Assembly (NCBI GenBank): GCA_902825845.1
Contig: CADECM010000022.1
Location: 160-64,159 of the forward strand
Reading direction: 5' to 3'
DNA: 64,000 nt
From: an uncultured beta proteobacterium
GTDB taxonomy: Bacteria > Pseudomonadota > Gammaproteobacteria > Burkholderiales > SG8-41
Part shown: positions 10,921 through 60,989 of the stretch, piece by piece
Layout of the letters: each line of letters starts with the position of its first letter
Numbering within the stretch: the stretch's first letter is position 1
The notes under the pieces: generated by a model
Database searches by the model: none
What the model saw: only the letters and a program-made list of their open reading frames with translations
Told to the model about the DNA's origin: nothing
Made by a program: the position numbers and the translations under genes

Positions 10921-11586
10921 TCAGCCGTTGGCGGCCTTGCGCGGCTGCATAGACTGCAGCATTGCGTCCACCAGCGTTTCCGCCTCCTGCGCGCCGGACA
11001 CACCCACCGCGCGGTTGAAAATGAAAAACGGCACGCCGTTGATGCCCGCGTTGCGCGCCTCAATGTCGGAATTTGCCACCACATCGCGATCGGCATCGCT
11101 CGCCAGGTACGCCTTCGCGGCGGCTTCGTCCAGACCGGCCCGTTGGGCGATCGCGGCCAACGCGTCGATGTCGGTGAGGTTGACGCCTTCAGTGAAGTAG
11201 CCATTGAACAACACTTCCGCGACTTCGTCCTGCCGTCCGTGTTGGTCGGCATAGTGCAGCAGGCGATGGGCGTTCAGCGTGTTGGGCTGCACCGCGATCC
11301 TGTCGAAAGCGAATGGTATTCCCACGGTTTCACCGACCTTGCGCACGCGTTCGTAGGTATTGCCACGCGCGCCGAACTTGCGCGCGATGTATTCCGCGCG
11401 CGGAATGCCCTCGCCGGGCAGATCGGGATTCAACTGAAATGGCAGCCAGCGCACGGCCGGCTTGACATCGGGACGCTGCTCGCTGAGCAGCTTTAACGCG
11501 GCTTCAAGCCGGCGGCTCCCGATGAAGCACCAGGGTCAAACCACGTCGGAAACGATGTCGATCTGCAACTCGAATTGCTGGCTCAT
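10921..11586 (-). CDS. DsbA/FrnE-like thiol:disulfide oxidoreductase with an in-frame TGA at the first active-site position (U-P-W-C); candidate selenoprotein, or otherwise a nonsense pseudogene
   Basis: ATG 11586 has GAGG upstream and lies 12 nt after the acyl-CoA ligase stop. It reads MSQQFELQIDIVSDVV-TGA-PWCFIGSRRLEAALKLL...VRWLPFQLNP in frame with the ORF 10921..11454. The TGA is at 11536..11538. The family normally has VCPWC at this position. Confidence 0.6.
11497..11514 (-). promoter_or_regulatory. candidate SECIS-like hairpin downstream of the DsbA-like TGA
   Basis: mRNA CGC(C)GGC-UUGAA-GCCGCG, 22-39 nt after the UGA. GC-rich stem with one bulge; the loop contains U and G. Confidence 0.3.
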
Positions 11587-11597
11587 GGCGGCCTCGC

Positions 11598-13208
11598 TCA
11601 GGTTGTGAACAGGTTTTGATATTGTTCGCGTAGTGTAGCCTTGAGCATCTTCCCAGTCGAGGTTTTCGGGATCGCCTCAACGAACTTCACGGCGTCGGGC
11701 AGCCAGAATTTGGCAAACATAGGCGCCAGATGCGCGGTCAGTTCGTCAGCGGTGGCGCTGGCGCCGGATTTGAGCACTACCACGGCCACCGGCCGTTCGT
11801 CCCACTTGGGATGCGGCACCGCGATCACCGCCGCCTCCTGTACCGCAGGATGCGCCATCAGAGCGTTTTCAAGGTCGACCGAGCTGATCCACTCACCGCC
11901 TGATTTCACCAGATCTTTCACGCGGTCAGTGATTTTCATGTAGCCGTGCGCATCCATGATCGCGATATCCCCAGTGCGAAACCAGCCGTCGTCGGTCCAC
12001 TTGTCCTTTTCCGACGGCAGTTCGTGATAGCCCGCGGCCACCCACGGCCCGCGGATTTGCAACTCGCCCATCGACTTGCCGTCCCACGGCGCCTCGCCCG
12101 CTTCCGCCATGGTGCGCAATTCGACAAACGGCAGCGGCATGCCCTGTCTGGAACGCACGGCGTATTCGTCATCGGGCGTCGAAGACGCCACGTCACGCTT
12201 GATGAAGCCCACGGTACCCAGCGGTGAAGTCTCGGTCATGCCCCAGCCGTGAATCACCCGCATGCCGAATTTGTCGAGCGCGCGGATCATCGATTCCGGC
12301 GCCGCGGCGCCACCACACACCATGCGCAATCCCGGTTGCAGCTGCCAGCGCGAGGCTTCCTTTTCCAGCGCCTGCAGGATGCCCATCCAGATCGTCGGCA
12401 CACCGGCCGACATGGTGACCTGCTCCGACGCATATAAATCGAGCAGGTTGGCCGCGTCCAGGTGCGGTCCGGGAAAGACCAGTTTGGCGCCCACCATCAC
12501 CGCCGAGTACGGCAGCCCCCAGGCATTTACATGAAACATGGGCACCACCGGACACAGCGTGTCGCGATTGCTGAGCGCGAGGCAATCGGTGGTGGCCGTC
12601 ACCATCGAGTGCAGCACCGACGAACGATGACTGTAAACCACGCCCTTGGGCTTGCCAGTGGTGCCCGAGGTGTAGCACATCCCGGCTGCGTCGTTTTCAT
12701 CGAGCTGCGGGGGAGCGAATGCCGGCGCGTCCGACAGCAGTTTTTCGTAGTCGTCAAAACCTGCCGGTACCGGCTGTCCGGTCAACGGCACCACGATCAC
12801 GCGCTCGAAATGGGTCTGCGATCTGAATTTCTCGTAGAGCGGCAGCAGCACGTCGTCGACGATCAGGAAACGGTCCTGCGCGTGGTTGGCGATATAGGCG
12901 ATGTCATCGGGATGCAACCGCAAGTTCAGGGTATGCAGCACGCCGCCGGCACAGGGCGCGGCAAAATAGGTTTCCAGATGCGCGTAATGATTCCACATCA
13001 GGGTTGCCACGCGCTCGCCCTTTTGCAACCCCAATTTTTGCATCGCGCCGCCGAGCGCGCAGGTGCGGCGGTGAAATTCGCGATAGGTCTGGCGATGCAG
13101 CGATTTATCCGGCAGGCGCGTGACAATTTCCGATGCCGCAAACAGCTGCCCCGCGCGCCGTAACAAATGCGTCAGCGTCAGCGGAAAATTCATCATCGTG
13201 CTGTGCAT
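11598..13208 (-). CDS. AMP-dependent acyl-CoA synthetase (long-chain fatty acid-CoA ligase-like)
   Basis: 536 aa with AMP-binding signature YTSGTTGKPKGV and a later GWFRTGD motif. Confidence 0.9.
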   Translation of the reverse strand: MHSTMMNFPLTLTHLLRRAGQLFAASEIVTRLPDKSLHRQTYREFHRRTCALGGAMQKLGLQKGERVATLMWNHYAHLETYFAAPCAGGVLHTLNLRLHPDDIAYIANHAQDRFLIVDDVLLPLYEKFRSQTHFERVIVVPLTGQPVPAGFDDYEKLLSDAPAFAPPQLDENDAAGMCYTSGTTGKPKGVVYSHRSSVLHSMVTATTDCLALSNRDTLCPVVPMFHVNAWGLPYSAVMVGAKLVFPGPHLDAANLLDLYASEQVTMSAGVPTIWMGILQALEKEASRWQLQPGLRMVCGGAAAPESMIRALDKFGMRVIHGWGMTETSPLGTVGFIKRDVASSTPDDEYAVRSRQGMPLPFVELRTMAEAGEAPWDGKSMGELQIRGPWVAAGYHELPSEKDKWTDDGWFRTGDIAIMDAHGYMKITDRVKDLVKSGGEWISSVDLENALMAHPAVQEAAVIAVPHPKWDERPVAVVVLKSGASATADELTAHLAPMFAKFWLPDAVKFVEAIPKTSTGKMLKATLREQYQNLFTT

Positions 13209-15195: not shown

Positions 15196-15222
15196 CTTAA
15201 GTATTTGTTTTTATTGTATTTT
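15196..15222 (-). repeat. AT-rich boundary motif, copy c
   Basis: The minus strand reads AAAATACAATAAAAACAAATACTTAAG. It overlaps the PrpD-like stop codon and lies ~95 nt upstream of the acyl-CoA dehydrogenase start. Confidence 0.7.
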
Positions 15223-16597
15223 ATTTACGAAGCGCCGTAACGGATACCGCACCGTCGAAGAACCCCGGTACCGATTTCAGAAATGCACTCAGTTGCGCCT
15301 CGTCCCATCCGCCAAACAGCGCATTGCGGCGGAACTTGTCCTCGATCTCGGCGCGCGTGAGCGGCTCCTGCGCGCCACCACGAATATGATTTTGCCGTTC
15401 CTCCACCACGCTGCCGTCTTTCAACGTCATGCGCACGTGGCCGGTGTAGGCCTTGGGATACGGATTGTTGGGGTCCACGACATAGCGCACCTTGGACGAC
15501 AGCGCAAGAATGCGCTCATCGCGCACGGTGTCCTCGGTAAATGCCGCAAGCCCCGCGCCGCCGGTCACAAACGCCACCGCGATATTGAACGGCGCGCTGA
15601 ACTTGGCCGCATAGTCGTTGGCCGGACGATGCTTGGACGGCAGCGGATCCCACAGCCGATGCACATAACCTTCGGCGGTTTCGCACAGGATGTCGGTCAC
15701 GTCTTCCGGCTTGATACCCTTTCTCGCAAGACGCAACGCGCAATCGACATAGGGCTGGTTCATGGTGCCGGTGGCATAGGGCTTGAAGGTAATGACATCG
15801 GTGTACCACTGTTTGCCGAAACCCTCGGTGAGCACGCCGTAATCGCCTTCCGCATTGCGCGCAAACGCATAGTAAAACCCATGCGTGCCCTCGAACACGG
15901 TGCGCGGCCCGAGAAACCCCTGCTGCCCGAAGCGCGCAGCCTGGATGCCGATCTTCGCCGCCCACCCCGCATGCAGGCGCTTGGTCCAAGCGCCCTCGGC
16001 CAGGTACTCGATGATGCCACCCGCCATGCTGCCAGCGATGCCCAGCGCATCCACGGTCTGCCTGCGATTCAGGCCCATGGTGACGCTCACTGCGAGCGTA
16101 GCCGCCATCGCGCCGAGAACGCCAGTCGGATGGAAGCCCGACTTGTGTATCGCCTTGGGGATCACCATCGACAGCCGGCACAGGGTTTCAATCCCCGCCA
16201 CCATGCCCTTGAACGCCGCCGTGCCATCGCAGCCAAAGCGCTCACACGCTGCCAGCACTGCGGGCATGATCACCGCGCTCGAGTGCACCGGACCACCCTC
16301 GAAGGTATCGTCAAAGTCTTCGCCGTGCGCCGCGCAACCGTTGATCATGGCCGCGGTTTCCGCTGCATAGGTCGCGCGATGTCCGATGGCGGTTGCCGCA
16401 CCGCCGCTGTCGACGCCCGCGACAACCGCCTTGATGTAGTCGGTATTGCGCGCCGCAACGCACAGGCCCACCACGTCGATCAGCAGTTCTTCGATGCGCG
16501 TGCGCACCGCCGCGGGAACGGCACTGACCTCCAGCGCCAGCGCCTGATCGGCGATGCGCTCTGCAACAGCCATCGTTTCATTCCGGGTCACAGTCAT
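15221..16597 (-). CDS. MmgE/PrpD family protein
   Basis: 458 aa from ATG 16597, 10 nt after the upstream stop. PrpD-like N-terminal regulatory and helical domain sequence. The 589-aa ORF extension overlaps the upstream gene and was rejected. Confidence 0.85.
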   Translation of the reverse strand: MTVTRNETMAVAERIADQALALEVSAVPAAVRTRIEELLIDVVGLCVAARNTDYIKAVVAGVDSGGAATAIGHRATYAAETAAMINGCAAHGEDFDDTFEGGPVHSSAVIMPAVLAACERFGCDGTAAFKGMVAGIETLCRLSMVIPKAIHKSGFHPTGVLGAMAATLAVSVTMGLNRRQTVDALGIAGSMAGGIIEYLAEGAWTKRLHAGWAAKIGIQAARFGQQGFLGPRTVFEGTHGFYYAFARNAEGDYGVLTEGFGKQWYTDVITFKPYATGTMNQPYVDCALRLARKGIKPEDVTDILCETAEGYVHRLWDPLPSKHRPANDYAAKFSAPFNIAVAFVTGGAGLAAFTEDTVRDERILALSSKVRYVVDPNNPYPKAYTGHVRMTLKDGSVVEERQNHIRGGAQEPLTRAEIEDKFRRNALFGGWDEAQLSAFLKSVPGFFDGAVSVTALRK

Positions 16598-16607
16598 GGC
16601 CTTACGG

Positions 16608-18380
16608 TTACCAGCCCAGCACGTAGGCCGGACGCCGCAAATCGGCGCCACCGTGCATGACACCGTTTTTGTGGTCATTGACAATGGTGCACACCGCGCC
16701 CGCGAGCCAGGTGAAATCCGGCCATTCGCGCACGTCGTGTCCGCGCGCCGCGAGATTGTCGTTAACCGACTTGTCGATGCGTGATTCAAGATACAGCCGA
16801 TCCGGAAAATACGCATGCGGTTCGAACGATCCCGGGTAACTGTAGGTCGAAAAGCGCGGCGCCTCGATCGCATCCTGCGCCGACATGCCGAACACGTTGA
16901 CGTTAAGGAACACCTGCAGCATCGCCTGCGTCGGCACATCGCCGCCCGGTGTGCCGAACGGCATGTACGCCTTGCCGTTCTTGAACGCAAGCGCGGGGTT
17001 GGGCGTCAGTCGCGGCCGTTTGCCCGGCGCCACCGAGGACGGATGCGAGGGATCGCTCCACGACTGCGTGCCGCGGCCCGAACACAGAATGCCCACACCG
17101 GGAACGATCGGCGTCTGATCCGAACCGTCGCTCGGCGTGCACGACATGGCATTGCCGTCCTTGTCGATCACGCAAAGGTACGAGGTATCGCCCGGACCCG
17201 GTTCGCCCGCGCCCTGTGCGGGCGACATGGCGCGGTTGTCAATTTCGGTCATGGTTTTCGGATCGCCGCCGCGCGGCATGCCGGCACAGGCGGCATCCAT
17301 GCGAATGCGCGTGCGCTGCCACGCCGCGTATTTTTCCGACATCAGGCCGGCCATCGGCACTTTGACAAACCGCGGATCGCCGAAATGATTGTGGCGGTCG
17401 GAGAACGAGAGTTTCAGCGCTTCGGTCAGCAGATGGATGTAATCGGGCGTGTTGTGTCCCAGCGCACGCAGATCGTAGCCTTTGAGAATATTCAGCGCCA
17501 TCGGCAGCGCTGGCCCCTGCGACCACGGGCCGCAGGCATGCAGTTCGATGCCTTCGAAGCGCGTTTTCACCGTGGGCTCGTGGCGCACGCCAAATTCGGC
17601 GAAATCCGCGAAGCGCATGAGGCCGCCCTGCTTTTCGATCCAGCGCGCCACCTCGCGCGCCACGTCGCCTTTGTAGAACGCATCGCGCGCAGCCTTGAGG
17701 CCGGCCTTGCGGCCCTTCTTGCGCGCCACCTTGCGTTCTTCGTCCGCCAGAAACTGCAGCGTGCGGCCCAGTTCGGATTGCACAAACACTTCGCCCACCT
17801 GCGGCACCCGGCCCCTCGGCAAAAATACCCGCGAGCTCGACGGCCAGCGTTCGTAGTCCTTGCGGTGGTTCGTAATGAATTGCGACAGCAGCCCGTAGAC
17901 CGGGAAGCCCTTGCTCGCAAAGCGGATCGCCGCGGAGGCCACCTCGCCAAAACTCATGGTGCCGTAATTCGCCAGCGCGGTGATCCACGCGTCGGGGGCA
18001 GCCGGTACCACGCAGCGTTCGACACCCGGTGGAATCTTGCCGCCGTGCCGCTTTTGGAAGTAGTCCGGTGTGATCAATTTCGGCCACACGCCGAGGCCAT
18101 CGATGCAGTGCACTTTTTTGTCCCTGGCGGTGTGAATGATCATCGGCGCGACGCCGCCGAAATTGACTTTGTCCGTCTGCACCACGCCGATGGTGATCCC
18201 CGCCGCCACGCCGGCGTCGATGGCGTTGCCGCCGGCCTCCAGAATTTCAAACGCGGCGTGGGCCGCCAGATAATGTCCGGCCGCGACGACATGGCGCGTG
18301 CCCATGATGGTGAGGCGCGGCGAGGATTGGGTCTGCTTGACTGCGGGTAACGCATTGGGTGGCAAATCGCGTGGATTCAT
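16608..18380 (-). CDS. gamma-glutamyltransferase family protein (paralog 1)
   Basis: 590 aa from ATG 18380. HVVAAGHYLAAHAAFEILEAGGNAIDAGVA N-terminus and an autoprocessing-type Thr context, GPGDTSYL. Confidence 0.85.
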   Translation of the reverse strand: MNPRDLPPNALPAVKQTQSSPRLTIMGTRHVVAAGHYLAAHAAFEILEAGGNAIDAGVAAGITIGVVQTDKVNFGGVAPMIIHTARDKKVHCIDGLGVWPKLITPDYFQKRHGGKIPPGVERCVVPAAPDAWITALANYGTMSFGEVASAAIRFASKGFPVYGLLSQFITNHRKDYERWPSSSRVFLPRGRVPQVGEVFVQSELGRTLQFLADEERKVARKKGRKAGLKAARDAFYKGDVAREVARWIEKQGGLMRFADFAEFGVRHEPTVKTRFEGIELHACGPWSQGPALPMALNILKGYDLRALGHNTPDYIHLLTEALKLSFSDRHNHFGDPRFVKVPMAGLMSEKYAAWQRTRIRMDAACAGMPRGGDPKTMTEIDNRAMSPAQGAGEPGPGDTSYLCVIDKDGNAMSCTPSDGSDQTPIVPGVGILCSGRGTQSWSDPSHPSSVAPGKRPRLTPNPALAFKNGKAYMPFGTPGGDVPTQAMLQVFLNVNVFGMSAQDAIEAPRFSTYSYPGSFEPHAYFPDRLYLESRIDKSVNDNLAARGHDVREWPDFTWLAGAVCTIVNDHKNGVMHGGADLRRPAYVLGW

Positions 18381-18559
18381 GGCGGCTCTCCAGACATTGC
18401 AAAATTTTTGCGGGGCTCCGGGATTCCCGCCCCCTTTCGATTTTAGTCTCAATTGCGCTTGCGCGGCAGGCACCCAACGCCTGCTGCGATCCCTGAATCG
18501 ACGCCCAGACGCCAGCCCCTGTAAAATCCGCGTTTCCTGCAGAAAAAGCGAGAACCGCC

Positions 18560-20155
18560 ATGGACATGTTCGACTTTCAGTTTCCCTATCCGTCACAGCG
18601 TATGCCCGTGCTTGCGCGCAACTGTGTCGCGACCTCGCAACCGCTGGCGGCGCAGGCCGGCCTGCGCATGATGCTGAAAGGCGGCAACGCGGTGGACGCC
18701 ATCCTTGCCTCGGCCATCTCGCTGACCGTACTGGAACCCACCAGCAATGGCATCGGCAGCGACGCGTTCTGCATCATGTGGGACGGCAAACAGCTGAAGG
18801 GTCTGAACGCCTCGGGCCGCTCGCCGGCCGCGTGGACGCCCGACCGGTTCAAGGGCAAAAGTGCGATGCCGGCGCGTGGCTGGGATTCGGTGACGGTGCC
18901 CGGCGCGGTATCGGCATGGGTCGAGATGTCGGCAAAATATGGAAAGCTACCCTTCGCCGACCTGTTCGAACCCGCCATCAAGTACGCGAGCGATGGTTAC
19001 ATGGTTTCGCCAACGATTTCCCGCCTGTGGGCCGGTGGCGTCGCCGAGTTGAGCGCACAGCCGGGCTTTGCCGAGGCATTCATGCCGCATGGCCGCGCGG
19101 TGCAGGCCGGCGAAACCTTCGTGGCCAAGGCGCACGCGGCAACGCTTCAGCGCATTGCCGAGACCAAAGGCGAGGCTTTTTATCGCGGCGATCTCGCTGA
19201 AAAAATCGCGGCTTTCGCCAAACAACACGGCGCTGCGCTGACGCTCGAGGACCTGGCAACGCACACCCTCGACTGGGTGGAGCCTGTCGGCATCGATTAT
19301 CGTGGCTACACGCTGCACGAGATTCCGCCCAACGGCCAGGGCATCGCGGCGCTGATCGCGCTGGGCATCCTCGAAAACTTCGATGTCGCCGCGCTGCCGA
19401 TCGATTCCCCCGACTGCATGCACCTGAAAATCGAGGCGATGAAACTCGCGTTTGCAGACATCAACGAATACGTGTCGGACATATCCACCATGCGCGTGAC
19501 GCCGGCGCAGATGCTCGACAAGGCCTATCTGAAGGAGCGCGCCAAACTGATCGACATGAAAAAGGCCGGCACGCCGTCCTTCGGCACGCCCAGCAGGGGC
19601 GGCACGGTGTATCTCACCGCTGCCGACGAGTCGGGCATGATGGTGTCGTACATTCAGTCCAACTACTCCGGTTTCGGATCGGGCGTGGTGGTGCCCGGCA
19701 CCGGCATCAGCCTGCAGAATCGGGGCTATGGCTTCAGCCTGAAACCCGGCCATGCCAACGTCGTCGCGCCGAAGAAGCGCCCGTTTCACACCATCATTCC
19801 CGGCTTCCTGACCAAAGCCGGCCAGCCGCTGATGAGTTTCGGCGTGATGGGCGGCTCAATGCAGGCGCAGGGCCATATGCAGGTGGTTTCGCGCATGGTC
19901 GATTACCACCAGAACCCGCAGGCAGCCAGCGACGCACCGCGCTGGCGCATCGACAGCGGGGTCACGGTCGGCATCGAGCACGGCGTGCCCGCCGCGACCA
20001 TTGCCGCGCTGCAGGCGCGCGGCCATGACATGCCGCAGGCGGATCGCTGGAGCACGGACTTCGGCCGCGCGCAATTGATTTACAAGATGGAAAACGATGG
20101 CGGCTACTTCGCCGCTTCGGAACGGCGGGCCGATGGCCAGGCGGTAGGTTACTAA
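18560..20155 (+). CDS. gamma-glutamyltransferase family protein (paralog 2)
   Basis: 531 aa with the GGNAVDAILA motif and the nucleophile context GGTVYLTAAD. Divergent from paralog 1. Confidence 0.85.
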   Translation: MDMFDFQFPYPSQRMPVLARNCVATSQPLAAQAGLRMMLKGGNAVDAILASAISLTVLEPTSNGIGSDAFCIMWDGKQLKGLNASGRSPAAWTPDRFKGKSAMPARGWDSVTVPGAVSAWVEMSAKYGKLPFADLFEPAIKYASDGYMVSPTISRLWAGGVAELSAQPGFAEAFMPHGRAVQAGETFVAKAHAATLQRIAETKGEAFYRGDLAEKIAAFAKQHGAALTLEDLATHTLDWVEPVGIDYRGYTLHEIPPNGQGIAALIALGILENFDVAALPIDSPDCMHLKIEAMKLAFADINEYVSDISTMRVTPAQMLDKAYLKERAKLIDMKKAGTPSFGTPSRGGTVYLTAADESGMMVSYIQSNYSGFGSGVVVPGTGISLQNRGYGFSLKPGHANVVAPKKRPFHTIIPGFLTKAGQPLMSFGVMGGSMQAQGHMQVVSRMVDYHQNPQAASDAPRWRIDSGVTVGIEHGVPAATIAALQARGHDMPQADRWSTDFGRAQLIYKMENDGGYFAASERRADGQAVGY

Positions 20156-22970: not shown

Positions 22971-23507
22971 CTAGCCCTTCTGCCCTTCCAGCAGCAACTT
23001 AGCCACTTCCGGCGCAATGGCCGCCGCGCGCTCGTCGAGTTGCTTGTCCGTCAGATTCGCAATCGGATGCGGCATTTCGAGGAAACGGAAGCCCTCCAGT
23101 CCCCAGGTGCGTGCCATGGCATTGCCGGTGGCGCGGAACACGTGGGTGATGATCGAGGCCGAGGGAATCCCTTGCTGTTCAAACACGATGCTGTCGAGCA
23201 CACTGCCCGAGCTGCATGACCCTCAGTCGCCGACGCCGGCAACAATGACGTCGACGTTGCCTTTGTATTCCTCGATGATCTCGGCATGCGGCGCCGAACC
23301 CGAACTCTTCTTGCGGCGGATCACGCGCGACTTGGTGCCGTGTTCCTTTTCCAGTATGTCGGCAATACGCATCAGCAACTGGTCAGAGTTGTGCTTGGTG
23401 TTGTCGATCAGACCGACCCGCAGGCCGTTGAGAGACTTGGGACGTGGCGCGTAATTGATGCGCCGCCCCGCTATCTCGGTGGTGGGATCCAGAATTTGCA
23501 CGGTCAT
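22971..23507 (-). CDS. UGSC-type (GrdB/PrdB-like) candidate selenoprotein with an in-frame TGA
   Basis: ATG 23507 has AGGAG upstream. ORFs 23223..23576 and 22971..23201 are in the same frame and are joined by the TGA at 23223..23225. Read-through gives ...VDVIVAGVGD-U-GSCSSGSVLDSIVFEQQGIPSASI...EMPHPI. Confidence 0.7.
23194..23210 (-). promoter_or_regulatory. candidate SECIS-like hairpin downstream of the UGSC TGA
   Basis: mRNA UCGGGCA-GUG-UGCUCGA, 13-29 nt after the UGA. The loop contains G and U. Confidence 0.3.
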
Positions 23508-23595: not shown

Positions 23596-24627
23596 CTACT
23601 TGATCTCCCGCGTCACGCTTTGCGAGCCGTTTTTGCCGCCCCAGCCCGGGATAAAACACGATTGCACGCCGGCAATGCCGCCCGCCGCGATCACCAGGAA
23701 ATCCTGCGGGGTTTCCACCAATGTCACCATGTTCTTTTCGTCATCCGCGGTCACCTCGCCCGGGGCGACGTGAATGCGCTTCAATTCCGCCAGCGACGTC
23801 CTGGAATGCTCGAAACAGAAATTCTGCACCTGCTCGCGCGTCCAGCCGGCTTTCTTGATGGTCAACTGATGCTCGCCCGGAAACACCATAGCATACTGCG
23901 GCTTGCGATTGCTGCCCGCGGATATACGCATGCTCGCGCACATGGTTTCCAGTATGCCGTCAGGCGTGGCGCTCAACTGGTTGGAAATCTGGTGCGGGGC
24001 CAGTGCCGCGAACACGGTCACCGCGTTCTGCTCCCTGCTGAAGCCGCGCGTGGTATGGAACGGCGGCCACGGACTGCTGTCCGTCTCGTTCTCGGCGATG
24101 CAGTAGGAATACTTGCCGCCGTGTCCCATGCTGCTGCGATCCAGTTCGCCGGGCAGCGTACCAATCACATTGCGCATTACCAGCCGCACTGCGCGGCCGA
24201 TGGTGGCGTTCGCGCGCCAGCCGGGGCCGAACAGGTTGTCGCCGGAATTCATGTCGAGCTTTTTGGCAATGGGGCCGTTTACCAGCATGAATACCGCCGA
24301 TCCGCCGGTGCTGGTGGCCGGGCCATGGTAACCATACTTGGGGTCCGCCAGCGCTTCGATCGCGGCGGCCACCACCGGCATGTATTCGGGCTTGCAGCCG
24401 GCCATCACAGCGTTGATCGCCACTTTTTCCGCGGTCACTTTCACCTGGCGGTTTTCGATAAACGCCAGCTGGTGCTGCGGATCGAGTTTGGCCGCCGTCA
24501 GCATCGCTTCGACTTTTTCCGCGGTCGGCGGTATCACCGGCAGACCGTCGGTCCATCCGTTCGCGTAGCAAAGTTCCAGCGCATCCCCCACATCCTTCGC
24601 GTCATGCCGCCGTGCTTTCAGTTCCAT
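23596..24627 (-). CDS. conserved-looking hypothetical protein (343 aa), family not recognised
   Basis: AGGAAAG lies upstream of the ATG. Sequence blocks GWTDGLPVIPPT and AINAVMAGCKPEYMPVV. Sits immediately upstream of the UGSC gene. Confidence 0.65.
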   Translation of the reverse strand: MELKARRHDAKDVGDALELCYANGWTDGLPVIPPTAEKVEAMLTAAKLDPQHQLAFIENRQVKVTAEKVAINAVMAGCKPEYMPVVAAAIEALADPKYGYHGPATSTGGSAVFMLVNGPIAKKLDMNSGDNLFGPGWRANATIGRAVRLVMRNVIGTLPGELDRSSMGHGGKYSYCIAENETDSSPWPPFHTTRGFSREQNAVTVFAALAPHQISNQLSATPDGILETMCASMRISAGSNRKPQYAMVFPGEHQLTIKKAGWTREQVQNFCFEHSRTSLAELKRIHVAPGEVTADDEKNMVTLVETPQDFLVIAAGGIAGVQSCFIPGWGGKNGSQSVTREIK

Positions 24628-28133: not shown

Positions 28134-28859
28134 TTATACCGGATCGCGTTGCGGCGCGGCGCGCAGCAGCGCGCTGTAGTACGCCGGCTGCGGCAGTCCG
28201 CTGAAGGACGCCAACTGGATCGGTCCTGACGCATCCGCTTCGCGCCACCACAGCGTCTTGCCATGGGCCATTGACTCCCATCCGTGCACAGCGGCCATGT
28301 GTATGAGACGCTGCATGTCGAGCCCGGCCGGGATTGCCATTTCAAAGTTGCCGGACGGCGCCTGCCACCAGGCCGCCAGCGCGGCGACTGGCGCATCGTG
28401 CGCCGCGGCAGCCGCCGCCGGAAACGGCATGGAGGCCAGATGTTCCTCGAATCGCTGCAGACTGAAATCAACACTCAAGGTTGCCAGCGCGGTTTCTTCC
28501 AGGTCACCGTACCAGTCGCGCGCGCTCAGGAACGCACTGACAGCTCCCGCGCAAACCGGCATCGCGACGGCTATCGTCAGCGGAAAATGTCGTCCCACCT
28601 TGTCAACACTGGGCATCATGACGCCGCCCCACAAGGTGTCGCCGATCACACCGGGCATCAACACAAATCGCCATACGGGACTATTCATGTAGATATCGAG
28701 CCATTTCTGACCCAGCAGGTCGCGGCTAGCCGTCATCGCCTGTTGCAGCCAGCCGTCCCAGATGGATATAAACGGCTGGCTCAGGCGGCGCGAGGCAAAG
28801 TCGCCGAGCGACGGTATCTTGCCGTACCAGCCCGGTACCCGCTCCGCGTCCGCCGCCAT
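28134..28859 (-). CDS. tagF: type VI secretion system-associated protein TagF (DUF2094)
   Basis: VPGWYGKIPSLGDFASRRL N-terminus. The ATG overlaps the tssM stop (ATGA). Confidence 0.8.
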   Translation of the reverse strand: MAADAERVPGWYGKIPSLGDFASRRLSQPFISIWDGWLQQAMTASRDLLGQKWLDIYMNSPVWRFVLMPGVIGDTLWGGVMMPSVDKVGRHFPLTIAVAMPVCAGAVSAFLSARDWYGDLEETALATLSVDFSLQRFEEHLASMPFPAAAAAAHDAPVAALAAWWQAPSGNFEMAIPAGLDMQRLIHMAAVHGWESMAHGKTLWWREADASGPIQLASFSGLPQPAYYSALLRAAPQRDPV

Positions 28860-31800
28860 CAGAGTCCGCCCGGACAGCGAAACTGTTCCAGGTCCTGCAG
28901 GCGGAACGGATTGCGCACGCTGCTCGCGGTCACCTCGAACTGCGCCTGCCGCCCGTCGATCACGAAGGTGGCCAGGAACTTCTCCGCCTGCGGCGTCGCT
29001 TCGATCTTGACCTGATCGAACATGCGGAACAACGCCCACGGCCCTTCGAACGGGCCAAAGCCGCGCGTGGCCGGCGGTGTCAGCTGTACGCGCACCTGGG
29101 TACTGCCGCGCGGGCCCGGCCACTGCACCGCCTGCGGCACCTGCGGACCGTGGCTGTATTTGACGATCTGGCCGTCCACATCGAGGATGAATTGCGAGAT
29201 CGCGACATCCATCGACAGCGGTTTGAAATCGAGCCGCAGGCTGGGCGTCGCGCCGCCGCGAAAGAACACCTCGCGGATGGTCTGGGCGCGCTGGAACTGC
29301 AGCAACGTGCCGCCGTCACCGCCCATGCTGGCGTCGCCCACCTGGCGGAAGCGCCAGGGTTGCGCGGCGGTGTCCACCAGTGAGGCAAGATTCTTCTGGA
29401 AAAAACCGTCCATCAGCCGTCCGGAACCGAACAACTGCGCAAAATCTTCCTGCGTCACATTGCTCGCGCTGCCTTTGGCGAACGGATAGCGCCCGCCGAT
29501 CGCCTTGCTGCAGAAGCCGTAAATTTCAGCCTGCACCGCCTTGGATAAATTGTATTTCATGCCTGAAAGCGCCTGATTCTGTCCCGCCAATGCGAGCGTG
29601 CTCAACAAGGATTTGACGGGCTCGGGCAGGCGCCCGGCCTCCGCCTTGGCCTTGATCGGCAAATCGGTGGGCGGCGGCGGATTGCCGCCCTTTACCGCCA
29701 GTTCGGTGGCCGTGAGCTGGGCATAGAGTTCGCCGATCAGCGACAGCGTTCCGTCGATGGGCGCGGGTTGTCCCTGGCCCGCGCCTCGCACATACTCGCG
29801 CAACGCAGTAAAGCGGTCATCGACGATCAGTTCGGGCCGCGACAGCGTATCGGCCGCGGGCGCCGCGGCGCGCTGTGAGCCGCCCATCAGGCGTCCCATC
29901 GTTTCCTTGGTCTTGGCGATCACGTCTTCCGCTTTGCGCACCACGTCCTTGTCTGCATCCGCCACGCTCACCAGCGTCACCTCCTTGACGATGGCCTGCA
30001 GCAGCCGGCGCAACGGCGAATCGGGCGCGGCCAGCACGCGCGTCTGCTGGATCGTCTGCGACAAACCGCCGCCGTGCTGCAACCGTACGTCTTCGACAAA
30101 CGCGCTCCAGGTATTCGCGTAATCCGTCAGATACAGACGCTTGACCTCGTTGAGCAGCGCTTCGCGGGTCTTGAGATCGCCGGGATTGATGCGTTCCGCC
30201 TTGGGCAAATCCAGCACCCAGCCCTCCTCGCTGGCGAGCTGATTGGTGACCACCAGCGAGTCCTTCAGGAAACTGCCGTGGTATGCCTGATAACTGAACA
30301 GACCGGGCACCCCCGAGTTCAGCGGCTTGCCGCTGGCGCGCGCGAACACCAATGCCGCCGATGGCCCGGCCGCCGTGGCCAGCTTGAACTCCGGCTGTCC
30401 CTTGCCGATGCCCAGGCGCTTCAGGCGGCTGTAGACGCGTTCCGCCAGCGGCATGCGTGCCAGTGCGGCGCGCGCTTCAGCCAGCAGACTGGCGTCGGCG
30501 GGCACCGGCGAGGCAACGGCGCCCTGGCGGAACAATTCGGCGAGGTGTTCGCGCAAGGCCACGCGCTGCTCGCTGGTGACACTCTGCGGCAGATTGCGTT
30601 CCCAGTCGGATTCGATATACCCCTGCAATGCGCCGGCATCGAAGTGTTCGACATCGTGCAGCATGATGTAGGCCTTGAGCGTTTCGTAGAGAAACTCGAC
30701 GCTCTGATCACCGCGATTGCGCAACTGGGATTCGATGCGCCGCGAAAGACTCGGCAGGAACGCACTCTGCAGCACCCTGCGGTAGGCACTGTTGGCAGCA
30801 CCCTCCAGCTTGTCACTTTGCGACAACCCCAAGCCCATCAACAGGCCGTCGCGATTGGCGTCGGTGGACGGCAGATCGCGGATCGATTGCAGCAGCGGCA
30901 GCAGCCTCACCACGTCGCTTTCGCCGGCCGGATTGAGCGCTGCCACCTGTTTGGCCAGCGGCGGCACCTTCGCCTGCACCGCGGCGACGTGCGCCTTGTT
31001 GCGCGTGTAACTGATGGTCCAGGCGGCCACGCTGCCGAGGGTGACCGCCGTGGCCAATCCCAGTCCCGTCCACTGCAGCAAGGTTCGGCGGCGCTCCCAG
31101 CGCAGGTTGGCGCCCGCCAGCCCGGCCTCGTTGAAAATCACCGAATCCAGCAATCGCGTCAGGAAATAGCTGCGGCCGCTGGGTTGCTGCGGCGCGAGCA
31201 TGCGTGCCTCCAGGCGCAGCGCGCGGCCGAGACTGCCGATGACGCGGTCGATCGCGCTGCCTTCCTGGGTCCCACTGGTGAAGTAAACGCCGCGCAGCAT
31301 CGGCTGTTCCACAAAGCGCGACGGCGCAAACACCTTGCCCACGAAGTCGTCCAGAATGCCCTTGAGACTGCTGAATTGCTGCGGAAAGGCGTAAATCAGC
31401 GCGCGCAGATTGGGGGTGCGCTCATCCTGCAACAGGTCGATGACGCGATCATTGAGGCGCTGTTCCAGCGCATCGAATTCGGACCTGAACGCGGGTGCCG
31501 CCGGCCCCGCCTCGGCCGCCTGAAACGCGAACGTGGTGCCCCAAACCTGCGCGCGCTCTTCCGCGCCGAGCTTCTGGAAGAACTCCACGAACCCCGCCAG
31601 CAAATCCATCTTCGTCACCAGCACGTAGATCGGGAAGCGGATGCCCAGCTGTTCATGCAACTCTTCCAGGCGCTGGCGCAGGATGCTGGCGTGGTGTTCG
31701 CGCTCCGCGGCCGATTGCTGCAGCAGATCGCTGACACTGATCGTCAACAGCGCGCCGTTGATGGGGCGCCGCGGGCGGAATTTCCGCAGCAGGGAAAGAA

Positions 31801-32446
31801 AGCCGCTCCACGCCGCGCGATCGACCTCGACATTCGCTTCATGCGTGGTGTAACGGCCCGCGGTATCGATCAGTACCGCCTGATCGGTGAACCACCAGTC
31901 GCAATTGCGCGTGCCGCCGACGCCGCGGATCGCCTCCTGCCCGAAGCGCTCGGCCAGCGGAAACTTGAGGCCGGAATGAATCAGCGCGGTGGTCTTGCCC
32001 GAACCCGGCGCGCCGATGAAGATATACCAGGGCAACTGATAGACATAGCGCCTGGACAAGCGCGCGGCGAGGCCGGGTGCCTTGTCGCTGCCGCCCAGCC
32101 GCGCCTTGCTCAGAATCTTCATCGCGTCTTCAAAACGATTGCCCAGCGTGGCAATCTCGTCCGCGCCGGGCGCGTCCTGCGCCGGCCTGGCGGGCGCTTG
32201 TTTCAACAGCGTTTCGAACAGCCGCGCATTGTTCAGTTTCGCCCGCAGCGCACGCCAGGCGATTCGGCCCAGGAACAAGCCCCACACCACGGCAATGGCT
32301 ATCCAGCGCGCCGTGGCGGACTCCAACGGCCGGTACTCGCCAAGCGCAAGCAGCGGCCCGCCGTACCAGATGACCAGACTGATCAGCAGCAGGCCCAGTG
32401 CCGTCATCGTCCAGCGATTGAAGATCCAGCCCAGAAGCTTTTTCAT
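28859..32446 (-). CDS. tssM: type VI secretion system membrane subunit TssM (IcmF)
   Basis: ~1195 aa with N-terminal TM helices, Walker A GAPGSGKTT and an IcmF-like C-terminal region. Confidence 0.9.
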   Translation of the reverse strand: MKKLLGWIFNRWTMTALGLLLISLVIWYGGPLLALGEYRPLESATARWIAIAVVWGLFLGRIAWRALRAKLNNARLFETLLKQAPARPAQDAPGADEIATLGNRFEDAMKILSKARLGGSDKAPGLAARLSRRYVYQLPWYIFIGAPGSGKTTALIHSGLKFPLAERFGQEAIRGVGGTRNCDWWFTDQAVLIDTAGRYTTHEANVEVDRAAWSGFLSLLRKFRPRRPINGALLTISVSDLLQQSAAEREHHASILRQRLEELHEQLGIRFPIYVLVTKMDLLAGFVEFFQKLGAEERAQVWGTTFAFQAAEAGPAAPAFRSEFDALEQRLNDRVIDLLQDERTPNLRALIYAFPQQFSSLKGILDDFVGKVFAPSRFVEQPMLRGVYFTSGTQEGSAIDRVIGSLGRALRLEARMLAPQQPSGRSYFLTRLLDSVIFNEAGLAGANLRWERRRTLLQWTGLGLATAVTLGSVAAWTISYTRNKAHVAAVQAKVPPLAKQVAALNPAGESDVVRLLPLLQSIRDLPSTDANRDGLLMGLGLSQSDKLEGAANSAYRRVLQSAFLPSLSRRIESQLRNRGDQSVEFLYETLKAYIMLHDVEHFDAGALQGYIESDWERNLPQSVTSEQRVALREHLAELFRQGAVASPVPADASLLAEARAALARMPLAERVYSRLKRLGIGKGQPEFKLATAAGPSAALVFARASGKPLNSGVPGLFSYQAYHGSFLKDSLVVTNQLASEEGWVLDLPKAERINPGDLKTREALLNEVKRLYLTDYANTWSAFVEDVRLQHGGGLSQTIQQTRVLAAPDSPLRRLLQAIVKEVTLVSVADADKDVVRKAEDVIAKTKETMGRLMGGSQRAAAPAADTLSRPELIVDDRFTALREYVRGAGQGQPAPIDGTLSLIGELYAQLTATELAVKGGNPPPPTDLPIKAKAEAGRLPEPVKSLLSTLALAGQNQALSGMKYNLSKAVQAEIYGFCSKAIGGRYPFAKGSASNVTQEDFAQLFGSGRLMDGFFQKNLASLVDTAAQPWRFRQVGDASMGGDGGTLLQFQRAQTIREVFFRGGATPSLRLDFKPLSMDVAISQFILDVDGQIVKYSHGPQVPQAVQWPGPRGSTQVRVQLTPPATRGFGPFEGPWALFRMFDQVKIEATPQAEKFLATFVIDGRQAQFEVTASSVRNPFRLQDLEQFRCPGGL

Positions 32447-32526
32447 GCGCGACTCCGGCCGCAAAACCGCCCGCGGCGCGCGCGCAGCGTCCGGCAGCGG
32501 CATTCCCGCGTCAAGGCGCGCATCGC

Positions 32527-33837
32527 TCAGGTCCCCTTGCTGGCGGCAAACAGCGTGATCTCGATGCGCCGGTTGCGCGAACGGCCGTCCGCGCCGGCGT
32601 TATCGGCGATGGGCTCGGCATCGGCGCGTCCTTCGGCGGACAGACGCTCCGCGGGCACCACCTGCGCAATCAGACGCAGCACCATGCGCGCGCGTTCCTC
32701 CGACAAATGCCAGTTCGACGGGAAGCGTGCGGTGCGTATCGGCTGGTTGTCGGTATGGCCGATCACCTGAACCTTGCCGGGGACGCCCTTCAATGCGTCC
32801 GCAATGCGCTGGATCAGTGGCAGATAGCGCGCGGAAATGGTGGTGCTGCCAGGCTCGAAAAGACCGTCGCCACGAATCGTAACCACGCTCATGGTGCGTT
32901 CGTCGCGCACGGCCACCAGTCCTTCGGCGATCTCCGGCGCGAGGAAAGTGGCCAGACGCGGCGGCACCGGTAGCGGCGCGGCCGCGGCAGGCGCCGGTGC
33001 CGGCGCGGTGACACGAAGGGCCTGAATCCGCGCATACGTCTGATCCGACAGATCGCCCAGCTTGTAGCGGTAGACAAAGTACACGCTCAGCATGATCGCC
33101 GTCGCAAGCGTTCCGGCAATCCACAGCGGCAGCGCATCGAGAATTTTGGAACGCGCCGCGACCACGCCTTTCCAGCGCGGAGACAGGTCGCGCTCATAGT
33201 CGCCGGCGGCCTTGTGCAATATCTGCGCAAGGCGCTCGCGCAGCACTTCCAGCTGCGAGCGCCCATTGTCAATCACCCGGTAGCGGCCCTCAAAGCCGAA
33301 GGCGAGGCACACATACATGAGTTCCAGCAGCGAACGGTTCGCCGCGGGATTTTCCGCCAGCTTGGACAGCAGCTGAAAAAACTTCTCGCCGCCCCAGGTC
33401 TCATTGTGAAACAGCACCAGCAGGCTGTTGCGTGCCCACATGCCCGATCCGCCCCACGGCGTGGAGGCAGCCGTCTCGTCCACCACCGTGCACAGCACAT
33501 AGCGGGCAGCAATGATGTTTTCCGCGGAAACGCCGGCCTCGCGCGCGCGCATTTCGAAGCGCTTGATTGCTTCCACCAGATAATCGCGCAGGGCCGCGGC
33601 ATCCGGATGATTGAGCGTGGTGCGCAACTGCGGAATAACATCGAGCAGTGGGTTGGCCGCGGCCACCAGCGGATTCATGCCGGCAACCACCGGGGGATCG
33701 GCCACCTGCGCCGGCGCACCAGTATCCGCGGCCGCGCGGGCCGCGCCTTGCCCGGGGATACTGCGCCCGCCCGGCGTGGGCATGATCACCGTCCGTCCGG
33801 CTTCCGGCATCGCAAAGGGATCGTCGTTGTTGCTCAT
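32527..33837 (-). CDS. tssL: TssL/DotU with a C-terminal OmpA/MotB peptidoglycan-binding domain
   Basis: DotU-like N-terminal domain, a TM helix, and a C-terminal OmpA-like region (HTDNQPI..NWHLSEERA..NRRIEI). Confidence 0.9.
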   Translation of the reverse strand: MSNNDDPFAMPEAGRTVIMPTPGGRSIPGQGAARAAADTGAPAQVADPPVVAGMNPLVAAANPLLDVIPQLRTTLNHPDAAALRDYLVEAIKRFEMRAREAGVSAENIIAARYVLCTVVDETAASTPWGGSGMWARNSLLVLFHNETWGGEKFFQLLSKLAENPAANRSLLELMYVCLAFGFEGRYRVIDNGRSQLEVLRERLAQILHKAAGDYERDLSPRWKGVVAARSKILDALPLWIAGTLATAIMLSVYFVYRYKLGDLSDQTYARIQALRVTAPAPAPAAAAPLPVPPRLATFLAPEIAEGLVAVRDERTMSVVTIRGDGLFEPGSTTISARYLPLIQRIADALKGVPGKVQVIGHTDNQPIRTARFPSNWHLSEERARMVLRLIAQVVPAERLSAEGRADAEPIADNAGADGRSRNRRIEITLFAASKGT

Positions 33838-33848
33838 GGCGCGGCCGC

Positions 33849-35189
33849 CTAACCCCGTATGGCCCAGAATTCGATTTCAAGTCCCGGAAATTCACCGGCA
33901 ATATGCATCGCCAGACCGCCGGTGCGTTCCAGCTGCTTCCACAAATCACCGCCGCGCTCCATTTCGAAGTAATTGAAGCCGGCATGGTAGGGAATCTGCC
34001 GCGGCGCCACCGGCAGCGAGTGCAGTGGTATGCCCGGCAGCTGCAGATTGACCAGATCGCGGATGCGCTCTGCCGGCCCGATCTTGACCTGTGCCGGAAA
34101 GCGCGTGCGCAGGGCGTCGGCGGGCAACTGCGCATTGACGGCAAATACGAAGCTCGCGCTCTTGAGCAGTTCCAGATCCGCGATGGTGGCCACGCGCACG
34201 CCGTACTGGCGATCCAGCAACTCGATGGCGATGGCGCTCTGCTCGAGCACCATGCTCAATGCACGCCGGATTTCGGCAATCAGCGGCGTGAAGCAGGCGC
34301 GCAGATCGTCGTGATGATACGGCGGGAGCCGCGCCGGGCGCCGTGTGCCGGTGCTGAACGTCGCAAAATCGCCGGCCACCGACAGGCATAACGCAAACAG
34401 GCGTTCCGGATGCAACAATGTCACCATGCCCAGATGCGCGAACAGCGGCTCATAGCGGTTGATGGTCTGCAGCATCAGAAAATCGGCGATTTCCGCGACG
34501 CCGCCGCGCCCGGGCTGGGACAGCCGCGACGCCAGCGCGTCTCCGCGCTGATGCAACAGCCCGTGCAGATCGCGCACATGCCGCGCCAGCAACGGCTGCG
34601 CGCCGGCATGCAGCGTCGGCGGAATGTAGGTATTGTCGAGCACGACCTGGTTGTCGGCGCGGCGCTCCAGCACGCGCACCACGCCGAGCGTGCAGTAGGC
34701 GTCGGTCACCTCGCTCTCGCGAAACAAACGCAGGCGCAAGCCGCCCAGTTCAACCAGGGCGCTGGCATCCGACGTCGAATGGGTATCGGGCACATCGGCA
34801 TCGACCACCGCAAACCGCGCCAGCGTGTCCGGATCGCCGGCGGCAGTGGTCGATTCGATGCTGCCGGCACGCCGTACCGGCAGTGCCAGTACAATCAGCT
34901 CGTCCCTGACTTCGGCGCCGATTTCAAGGGGTTCGGGCGCCGCATCCTCCTCCGGGAAATGAAATACGGTGCCGTCCGGCAACACGCCTCGCGCCGCCGC
35001 GATCTGCACCTTGCCCAGCGCCAGCGCATCGGCGTCGAGTTCCAGCTGCAGATAACCCCAGCCGTAGGGCGCGATCGCACCTGCGCGGTGTTCGATGATG
35101 CGTTCGAGGTAGCGGTCATGCTGCTGGAAATGCTGGGGCTGCAAAAACATGCCCTCTGACCAGATGACGCGATTACGATGCATTGACAT
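33849..35189 (-). CDS. tssK: type VI secretion system baseplate subunit TssK
   Basis: 446 aa with the VIWSEGMFLQPQHFQQHDRY N-terminus typical of TssK. Confidence 0.9.
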   Translation of the reverse strand: MSMHRNRVIWSEGMFLQPQHFQQHDRYLERIIEHRAGAIAPYGWGYLQLELDADALALGKVQIAAARGVLPDGTVFHFPEEDAAPEPLEIGAEVRDELIVLALPVRRAGSIESTTAAGDPDTLARFAVVDADVPDTHSTSDASALVELGGLRLRLFRESEVTDAYCTLGVVRVLERRADNQVVLDNTYIPPTLHAGAQPLLARHVRDLHGLLHQRGDALASRLSQPGRGGVAEIADFLMLQTINRYEPLFAHLGMVTLLHPERLFALCLSVAGDFATFSTGTRRPARLPPYHHDDLRACFTPLIAEIRRALSMVLEQSAIAIELLDRQYGVRVATIADLELLKSASFVFAVNAQLPADALRTRFPAQVKIGPAERIRDLVNLQLPGIPLHSLPVAPRQIPYHAGFNYFEMERGGDLWKQLERTGGLAMHIAGEFPGLEIEFWAIRG

Positions 35190-35259
35190 TCATCCGTCGG
35201 CGGTTGCGGGCGCGAGGGGAAGACCGGGCCTGTGATGGAAAGACACGTGTCATCAGCCG

Positions 35260-35733
35260 TTAGCGGTTAAGGACCGTCACGCTGCTGCGCTCGATCACCA
35301 CCTGCAGGTTATTGGATTGGTGGGGAACAAAGGTCGCTACGCGGCGCCACTCGGAACGCTCGAGGTCGCGGAAAGCGGCAAACAGGCCCAGATAGACGAC
35401 CTCGGGCGGCAGCTGTTTATCCAGCGTCCTGGATTCATTCGGCAGCAACTGGAATTCCTCCTTGAATACGAGGTCGCCGCCGAGTGTTTCCTTGTCCTTC
35501 TCGTAAAGCGCGAAAAAATCGGCGGTATCGTACGCGGCGCGGGATTTCAGTCCGTACATGCGCACCGTCACCGGCGACGGACGGCCACGCGCATCCGGGT
35601 TGACGTTCGCCTGCGCATTAAACACGACCTTGACCAGGGTCGGCTTGGGTGGCGGCGGCGGCTTCGCGCATCCCGCCGCCACGGCCAGCGCCGGCAAGGC
35701 AAACAACAGCCGGCGGCGCAACAAAAAGCTCAT
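35260..35733 (-). CDS. tssJ: type VI secretion system lipoprotein TssJ
   Basis: 157 aa with lipobox AAGC and TssJ-like sequence NVNPDARGRPSPVTVRMYGLK. Confidence 0.8.
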   Translation of the reverse strand: MSFLLRRRLLFALPALAVAAGCAKPPPPPKPTLVKVVFNAQANVNPDARGRPSPVTVRMYGLKSRAAYDTADFFALYEKDKETLGGDLVFKEEFQLLPNESRTLDKQLPPEVVYLGLFAAFRDLERSEWRRVATFVPHQSNNLQVVIERSSVTVLNR

Positions 35734-42547: not shown

Positions 42548-42551
42548 GATT

Positions 42552-60982: not shown

Positions 60983-60989
60983 CTTCGTA

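Follow-up and report, generated by a model that had tools for sequence, protein, structure and literature searches.

A probable selenocysteine codon in a DsbA/FrnE-like gene of an uncultured betaproteobacterium, with a distant conserved hairpin as a candidate recoding signal

On the minus strand of a 64-kb stretch of DNA from an uncultured betaproteobacterium (contig CADECM010000022.1; the whole stretch is called the window here, and all positions are counted along it), a gene for a DsbA/FrnE-like protein carries an in-frame TGA where related proteins have the first cysteine of a CPWC motif. The locus thus raises the question of whether this TGA is a defect or is read as an amino acid, and, if it is read, which RNA element could direct its decoding. 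The gene is a further member of the already known DsbA-like selenoprotein family that has been mis-annotated as truncated. We hold with considerable confidence that it encodes a FrnE/DsbA-like oxidoreductase in which selenocysteine (Sec, U17) is inserted at the UGA 11538..11536 by way of bacterial SelB and the selenocysteine tRNA (tRNA-Sec).

The list of open reading frames (ORFs) holds for this locus only a 177-aa ORF that starts at a GTG (10921..11454), as a first-pass annotation of the same DNA had already remarked. That annotation had read upstream in the same frame to an ATG preceded by GAGG and to a TGA between the ATG and the GTG, and this reading proved correct. A frame of 222 codons runs on the minus strand from the ATG (11586..11584) to the stop codon TGA (10923..10921) and specifies a product of 221 residues including U17, the in-frame TGA (11538..11536) being codon 17. 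Across this codon the peptide reads MSQQFELQIDIVSDVV-TGA-PWCFIGSRRLEAAL, the immediate surroundings being IDIVSDVV-U-PWCFIGSRRLEAAL. The GAGG (11595..11592, minus strand) resembles a Shine-Dalgarno sequence and lies 5 nt ahead of the ATG, and the stop codon of the upstream ligase gene (11600..11598) stands just before it. The features of the locus are:

10921..11586, minus strand: coding sequence of the putative DsbA/FrnE-like selenoprotein (translation, Pfam, FrnE match, orthologs at a conserved locus)
11592..11595, minus strand: Shine-Dalgarno-like GAGG (sequence)
11536..11538, minus strand: TGA probably read as Sec (U17, U-P-W-C; the same codon is TGA in 59 genes and TGC or TGT in 99)
11598..13208, minus strand: acyl-CoA ligase gene, with 11 nt from its stop to the ATG (Pfam AMP-binding)

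When U is written as C, the product matches the Pfam family DSBA (PF01323, E=1.9e-40, residues 8-209), so that a DSBA-like thioredoxin-fold domain is present. Its closest solved relative is FrnE of Deinococcus radiodurans (5CNW, E=1.3e-37), and U17 aligns with the first cysteine of the FrnE CPWC, in agreement with the first-pass placement of the TGA at the nucleophilic cysteine. No signal peptide was found in the protein of the window, and strand beta-1 leads straight into UPWC, like in FrnE. This arrangement indicates that the predicted product is a thiol-disulfide oxidoreductase of the FrnE/DsbA-like type that resides in the cytoplasm and uses Sec as its nucleophile. On the basis of homology and synteny alone, we infer that it would reduce or isomerise disulfides. 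UxxC in place of CxxC had been pointed out as the usual Sec position in thioredoxin-fold selenoproteins, and DsbA-like proteins with UxxC (COG2761, PF01323) are indeed a published family of bacterial selenoproteins, in print since the Sargasso Sea study of 2005 (Zhang, Fomenko & Gladyshev; PMC1088965) and treated in later work (PMC1794560, PMC5029168, PMC9312934, PMC13188914). The family was counted in 41 organisms in 2016 (PMC5029168), and a review of 2026 lists it under the name 'DsbA-like protein form 1' (PMC13188914). Judged by its sequence, the membership of the gene of the window in this known selenoprotein family is shown.

We searched 5.8 billion proteins for homologs and then fetched the DNA of the homolog loci to inspect the codon itself. 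Two samples of 79 genes each were assembled, one from genomes (species-representative loci together with the window gene) and an independent one from metagenome loci. The closest homologs, about 78 in number (65-89% identity), have without exception been annotated as proteins of 173-199 aa that lack the N-terminus, and full-length calls (217-224 aa) appear only at 64% identity or less. At the position of codon 17, the genome sample has TGA in 31 of its 79 genes (30 loci and the window) and TGC or TGT in 48, while the metagenome sample has TGA in 28 of 79 and TGC or TGT in 51. Taken together, 59 TGA genes stand against 99 Cys genes, UPWC lying opposite CPWC, which is the Cys/Sec column in homologs that the first-pass annotation had proposed to look for. 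The 59 TGA assemblies are independent, and protein identity among them reaches down to about 53%. Neighbour-joining places the 31 TGA genes of the genome sample together in a single deep clade, and the Cys forms fall outside it. That sister genomes might carry TGC on otherwise identical flanks had been named as the mark of a recent nonsense mutation; the opposite was found, as the closest relatives of the window gene all have TGA and Cys occurs only outside the clade.

The surroundings of the gene are conserved as well. An acyl-CoA ligase gene lies directly upstream in at least 16 TGA loci (67-85% identity), and at no Cys locus was an ortholog of it found next to the gene. Since this neighbour is kept, the TGA genes are orthologs at a conserved locus. 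Genes for an AidB-like acyl-CoA dehydrogenase and a DnaJC28-like protein are also retained at several TGA loci. The acyl-CoA ligase gene is probably the operon partner of the DsbA-like gene, and the tight, conserved linkage to the co-oriented genes of the ligase and the AidB-like dehydrogenase hints at a possible role of the oxidoreductase in their pathway.

The codons on either side of the TGA evolve like those of a protein-coding gene. In 30 TGA genes, the eight codons ahead of the TGA (I-D/E-I-V-S-D-V-V) vary almost only at third positions, and 12-21 codons ahead of the TGA each of these genes possesses an ATG that is accompanied by a GGAG-like motif. The codons after it (P-W-C-F-I-G-K-R) show synonymous variation only, and a crude ratio of nonsynonymous to synonymous polymorphism (pN/pS) within the TGA clade amounts to 0.43. 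As an ordinary stop, TGA also ends 20 of the 38 predicted genes of the window, more than any other stop codon, and the genetic code is therefore not reassigned. These patterns of substitution show that the TGA is a conserved, selected, in-frame codon of what must be a translated gene.

We then compared the RNA downstream of the codon between both groups. The two groups do not differ in the minimum free energy (MFE) of the 60 nt that follow the codon (-21.0 kcal/mol for TGA and -21.7 kcal/mol for Cys genes), both sets being GC-rich and encoding the same conserved peptide. Since plain MFE is not discriminating for this reason, each gene was compared with its own synonymous-codon shuffles. In TGA genes, the first 72 nt behind the TGA fold more stably than their shuffles (mean z -1.17, p=3e-6), whereas the same 72 nt in the Cys genes have a mean z of -0.19 (TGA versus Cys, p=5e-5 by Mann-Whitney test); further into the gene, the effect is small or absent. 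An RNA structure of about 95 nt is shown to be under selection in the TGA genes only. Its predicted layout was obtained by folding 99 nt per TGA gene, with alignment columns numbered from the T of TGA:

H1, core columns 15-20 with 68-73: long-range helix CAUCGG/CCGAUG
H2 and H3, columns 23-27/40-44 and 48-54/58-64: inner hairpins in the subgroup of the window; elsewhere one differently placed hairpin
H4, columns 80-86 with 92-98: hairpin with the loop CGUGC

The corresponding elements in the window are:

11517..11524, minus strand: 5' strand of the H1 core, CAUCGGGA, from 11 nt after the UGA; its partner in the MFE fold of 99 nt is 11473..11466
11466..11473, minus strand: 3' strand of the H1 core, UCCCGAUG, Pro-Asp codons CCC GAU; synonymous sites frozen in TGA genes only
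11475..11491, minus strand: H3 hairpin GCUGCUC-AGC-GAGCAGC, -10.1 kcal/mol; subgroup-specific, six pairs changed on both sides
11444..11462, minus strand: H4 hairpin AGCCGGC-CGUGC-GCUGGCU, -10.6 kcal/mol, 7 bp
11497..11514, minus strand: hairpin CGC(C)GGCU-UGA-AGCCGCG of the first-pass annotation, part of H2, -7.3 kcal/mol

In the alignment of 31 sequences, 80.5% of the cells pair, compared to 27-49% when the partners are slid, and slid-partner controls overall reached only 27-55% pairing. Eleven pairs of this alignment are changed on both sides, a number reached by 0 of 500 shuffles. We further counted, for each helix, the genes that can form it when no more than one mismatch is allowed; the metagenome genes in these counts had not been used in deriving the structure:

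H4: TGA genes 30/31 (genome) and 28/28 (metagenome); Cys genes 2/48 and 1/51 (total 58/59 versus 3/99)
H1 core: TGA genes 31/31 and 28/28; Cys genes 21/48 and 20/51 (total 59/59 versus 41/99)
H3: TGA genes 14/31 and 2/28; Cys genes 1/48 and 0/51
H2: TGA genes 29/31 and 24/28; Cys genes 37/48 and 35/51 (total 53/59 versus 72/99)

H4 was also predicted de novo by RNAalifold from the 28 metagenome TGA sequences. Its loop reads CGUGC in 58 of the 59 TGA genes and CGUGA in the remaining one (L045). Two Cys genes (L032 and L110) score at least 6/7 for H4, probably due to chance.

Codon choice and compensatory changes point to the same helices. In the 3' strand of H1, Asp-23 is encoded by GAT in 51 of 52-53 cases in TGA genes, compared to 20 GAT and 18 GAC in Cys genes, and Pro-22 by CCC in 51 of 53 cases compared to 44 of 76. 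In H4, Val-31 is encoded by GTG in all 59 TGA genes but in only 43 of 76 Val codons of the Cys genes; in the window this codon is the GTG of the 177-aa ORF (11454), which therefore lies inside the H4 loop. The flanking Ala-30 is GCC in 55 of 55 TGA genes, Ala being uncommon at this position in Cys genes, and Arg-32 is CGC in 57 of 58 TGA genes, while CGC occurs in 31 Cys genes, which mostly have another residue there. Pairs of H4 are restored by compensatory changes: G85-C93 is replaced by A-U in L017 and L045, and G81-C97 by A-U in three genes, both changes being synonymous in two of them (L001 and L002). In H1, C18-G70 is replaced by U-A in L045.

A second gene of the window bears on how these structures can be interpreted. 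A TGA-at-Cys gene about 12 kb away had been noted in the first-pass annotation, and it is indeed a member of the UGSC family, located 11.7 kb from the DsbA-like gene and scoring above the cutoff of its NCBIfam model:

22971..23507, minus strand: UGSC selenoprotein gene with TGA at 23225..23223 (NCBIfam NF041046, 140.6 bits versus a cutoff of 125)
23194..23210, minus strand: SECIS-like hairpin UCGGGCA-GUG-UGCUCGA of the UGSC gene, invariant in nine UGSC genes; passes the consensus rules

The closest UGSC homologs are split at the same TGA, and eight ortholog loci share the TGA at the U of UGSC. The codons UCG GGC AGU GUG CUC GAC are invariant in all nine UGSC genes, and the flanking codons vary synonymously. 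With 7 bp, a GUG loop, a start 12 nt after the UGA and the loop G at +20, this hairpin has the textbook geometry of a selenocysteine insertion sequence (SECIS). H4 has the same size and the same GUG loop core, and since the same SelB must read both genes, the two hairpins can be compared with each other. A scan of the window for other candidates that combine a TGA with a GUG hairpin returned only the UGSC gene and two off-frame artefacts inside type VI secretion genes. Directly upstream of the UGSC gene lies a 343-aa ORF (23596..24627, minus strand) that has no Pfam match. The same neighbour (67-76% identity) precedes the TGA-containing UGSC gene in seven of eight fetched loci (L161-L167), and its product may be a functional partner of the UGSC selenoprotein.

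Which of the elements downstream of the DsbA-like UGA could then recruit SelB? According to the bacterial consensus (PMC13188914), the apical loop of a SECIS measures 3-9 nt and tops an upper stem of 4-16 bp, one of the first two loop nucleotides is a G, as a rule with G or U after it, 16-37 nt separate the loop from the UGA, and the MFE does not exceed -7.5 kcal/mol; some of the known genes fall outside of this consensus (PMC13188914). H4 agrees with the rules on loop (5 nt, G at position 2 followed by U), stem (7 bp) and energy (-10.6 kcal/mol). It is the best candidate for the SelB-binding stem-loop and the one that we favour, at about even odds. More tentatively, and with the balance tipping slightly to the negative, we propose that a bridged SECIS operates here, in which H4, about 75 nt downstream, would be brought to the mRNA entrance by H1. 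SelB and Sec-tRNA-Sec would decode the UGA (11538..11536), SelB being bound to H4 (7 bp, loop C-GUG-C, 11462..11444). H1 (CAUCGG/CCGAUG, from 11 nt after the UGA) would carry H4 to the mRNA entrance of the ribosome and loop out the structured insert of 59-71 nt. The minimal SECIS of E. coli fdhF likewise starts 11 nt after its UGA. Once H1 has formed, the way from the UGA to the loop of H4 would consist of about 11 nt, one helix crossing, 6 nt and 7 nt, which would be comparable to the canonical range.

Several observations speak against this arrangement. Along the sequence of the window, H4 starts 73 nt after the UGA, and with a UGA-to-loop distance of 80 nt, or 83 nt in most orthologs, it fails the spacing of 16-37 nt. 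H1 was not recovered by RNAalifold from the 28 metagenome TGA sequences. The sequence of the window and L003 can form a competing helix CCGGCUUGA/UCAAGCCGG (11512..11503 with 11466..11457, minus strand), which lowers the pair probability of H1 and H4 in the window sequence to about 0.2-0.26; the fold with CCGGCUUGA/UCAAGCCGG is slightly favoured in the 95-nt fragment, and L001 and L002 lack this complementarity. A Cys sister gene of the TGA clade (L067, Cys codon at about 6049) has an H4-like hairpin about 80 nt downstream (region GCCAGUG-GUGC-GCUGGCU), which is either what a recent reversion from Sec to Cys left behind or a hairpin that was already present and made a switch from Cys to Sec possible. 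As all TGA genes derive from one event, the association of H4 with TGA is phylogenetically a single observation. Finally, the UGSC region can form a longer, mutually exclusive hairpin with a CGAC loop at a spacing of 26, which weakens the argument from the shared GUG loop.

The strongest competing explanation is that an ordinary stem-loop 16-37 nt after the UGA is the working SECIS, be it the hairpin of the first-pass annotation (H2) in the window or differently placed inner hairpins in other subgroups, and that H4 and H1 are auxiliary, for example for efficiency, or serve another purpose. The characterised bacterial SECIS elements are all located immediately downstream of the UGA (PMC13188914), and the inner hairpins of the DsbA-like genes covary between subgroups (H3, six pairs on both sides). 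The hairpin put forward in the first-pass annotation is present 22-39 nt after the TGA (11514..11497), with a 7-bp stem, one bulged C and a UGA triloop. Its loop lies at the right spacing, 29 nt after the UGA, and has a G at position 2, so that these parts of the SECIS prediction stand; its -7.3 kcal/mol misses the threshold of -7.5 kcal/mol, and it was not found in most orthologs. Since H2 moreover forms in 53 of 59 TGA and 72 of 99 Cys genes, this hairpin is probably not the discriminating element.

A scan of the canonical range for other stem-loops led to a similar result. A strict consensus scan that allowed one irregularity missed the SECIS of E. coli fdhF, and its counts (6/59 TGA versus 39/99 Cys genes) were dropped because this positive control had failed. 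A permissive scan that allowed bulges recovered the fdhF element (GGUC loop, spacing 18, -13.8 kcal/mol) and detected a compliant stem-loop at 16-37 nt in 55 of 59 TGA genes, which counts in favour of a proximal SECIS and against H4, but equally in 94 of 99 Cys genes. The consensus model is therefore not discriminating in this GC-rich DsbA-like family, and nothing TGA-specific is seen in the canonical range. The permissive scan found no loop there that is shared among the TGA genes; the best loops vary in position and sequence and include no conserved G-containing loop. RNAalifold applied to the first 57 nt gave only a GGUGC/GCGCC pairing, which we rejected because it arises from the conserved W-C-F and K-R codons and would be too near the UGA during decoding. 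A search with Rfam gave no match at gathering thresholds in the window, and a permissive search of 11380..11620 gave only chance matches. A proximal SECIS would also offer no reason why H4 is invariant and the synonymous sites are frozen, and we consider it rather unlikely.

Whichever element acts, the residue at codon 17 has to be considered separately. Sec is the residue that we infer to be inserted at the UGA. The Sec-decoding trait is common in Betaproteobacteria, with FdhA being their sole selenoprotein family in 2006 (PMC1794560). Against Sec in this gene it counts that Pfam scans of about 50 ORFs of the window detected no SelA, SelB or SelD, and that no selA, selB, selC or selD was found in 1.1 Mb of fetched flanks of related loci. 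The ability of the genome to decode Sec is therefore assumed. The window contains no tRNA genes at all and hence no tRNA-Sec, and no tRNA-Sec was found in the 1.1 Mb of related loci either. The related sequences retrieved are moreover almost all metagenome-assembled genomes (MAGs) or metagenome contigs, and the support is at the level of sequence. That Sec decoding is assumed for this genome would suit a readthrough of the UGA without Sec, in which a near-cognate or suppressor tRNA inserts Cys or Trp and a full-length non-selenoprotein results. Strong RNA structure downstream of a stop codon can in general stimulate readthrough, and the structure described above could aid such a process. The codon, however, takes the place of the catalytic Cys in a family for which Sec forms are documented, and 59 genes keep TGA although TGC is only one mutation away. 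The window also contains the UGSC gene as a second TGA-at-Cys gene, which belongs to an NCBIfam (seleno)protein family and has a canonically placed SECIS-like hairpin. Readthrough without Sec is thus highly improbable.

The weakest explanation, a nonsense mutation, pseudogene or assembly error with any product arising from the internal GTG 11454 and lacking the active site, accords with the gene callers' report of only the 177-aa GTG ORF, yet it is contradicted by the retention of TGA in 59 independent assemblies down to about 53% protein identity (31 of them forming the single clade), by purifying selection on both sides of the codon, by the position of the GTG in the H4 loop without a Shine-Dalgarno sequence and by the loss of beta-1, the UPWC motif and the start of helix alpha-1 from a 177-aa product, so that its probability is negligible. 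Reinitiation or a separate start at this GTG was likewise rejected, as it has no ribosome-binding site and coding constraint acts on the codons between the TGA and the GTG. The TGA is hence neither a recent nonsense mutation nor an assembly error, both a pseudogene and a separate downstream start are ruled out as well, and the preference of the first-pass annotation for Sec decoding over a nonsense mutation is borne out.

With Sec decoding as the preferred reading, the consequences for annotation are immediate. NCBI records of the clade (P0073, P0078, P0095, P0108, P0114 and P0119) are named 'DsbA family oxidoreductase' and comprise 192-200 aa, with the N-terminus through the TGA missing, so that they carry the name of an oxidoreductase without its active site. 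Public records thereby contain a whole clade of Burkholderiales/Betaproteobacteria genes in systematically shortened form (59 genes or more across the two samples, about 78 protein clusters). We found no NCBIfam model dedicated to the DsbA-like selenoprotein, the only match reaching 24.8 bits compared to a cutoff of 190, and a curated model would mend many of these records. Two selenoproteins other than FdhA, the DsbA-like and the UGSC protein, in a respiratory betaproteobacterium would widen the use of selenium beyond anaerobes. If H4 and H1 are the recoding signal, the main positional rule of bacterial SECIS predictors would be relaxed. A SECIS could then be moved out of the codons beside Sec, which would matter for selenoprotein discovery and for Sec engineering without changes to adjacent residues. 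A bridged SECIS would also be a concrete case of the 'distinct classes of bacterial SECIS' that reviews expect but leave undescribed, and the 59 natural variants provide a ready mutational series for H4 and H1.

Other regions of the window give an impression of the host. A FocA-like formate/nitrite transporter is encoded at 54392..55333 (plus strand) and a cbb3-type cytochrome oxidase cluster (CcoN, CcoP, CcoG/FixG-like) at 58484..63167 (minus strand), which together indicate a presumably respiratory, microaerobic lifestyle. A type VI secretion cluster with TssM/IcmF, TssL/DotU-OmpA, TssK/VasE and an FHA-domain protein occupies 28859..37612 (minus strand), and a run of c-di-GMP and signalling genes (GGDEF, GGDEF-EAL, FIST, HDOD and HD-GYP-like, the latter with DUF3391 and HD_5) occupies 39340..46106 (minus strand). 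Two gamma-glutamyl transpeptidase genes are arranged head-to-head (16608..18596, minus strand, and 18560..20155, plus strand). At their 5' ends, the longest ORFs of the two genes share 37 nt, and the true start of at least one of them probably lies further in. The ORF 16608..18596 is also overlapped by a PrpD/MmgE-family ORF (15221..16990).

When compared to already known systems, the gene of the window shares with the published DsbA-like selenoproteins the PF01323 domain, the UxxC motif with Sec in place of the first Cys, the widespread Cys homologs and the prediction by Sec/Cys pairing. The published members cited come from marine metagenome reads and mostly from anaerobes (Anaeromyxobacter, Desulfovibrio, Desulfotomaculum), whereas the gene described here belongs to a large clade of MAGs of Burkholderiales/Betaproteobacteria. 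FrnE of D. radiodurans resembles the window protein over residues 6-212, with CPWC opposite UPWC and no signal peptide in either protein. FrnE has Cys where the window protein has Sec; it comprises 260 aa, of which 11-218 are matched, and the window protein (221 aa) ends nine residues past the match and is thus without the C-terminal tail of about 40 residues. The UGSC family NF041046 has in common with the DsbA-like gene the TGA at a Cys position, the occurrence in the same lineages and an invariant 7-bp hairpin with a GUG loop, but it is an unrelated protein family and its hairpin lies at the canonical distance. Compared to the canonical SECIS of E. coli fdhF with its GGUC loop, H4 is alike in stem, loop (G-U at positions 2-3) and energy. 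The difference lies in the spacing from the UGA to the loop, which is 80 nt for H4 (83 nt in most orthologs), 18 nt for fdhF and 19 nt for the UGSC gene. The clade of the window differs from the published DsbA-like members in having a conserved hairpin outside the canonical SECIS window, and this distant, clade-invariant hairpin, together with the helix that would bridge to it, may be the new part of an otherwise known selenoprotein system.

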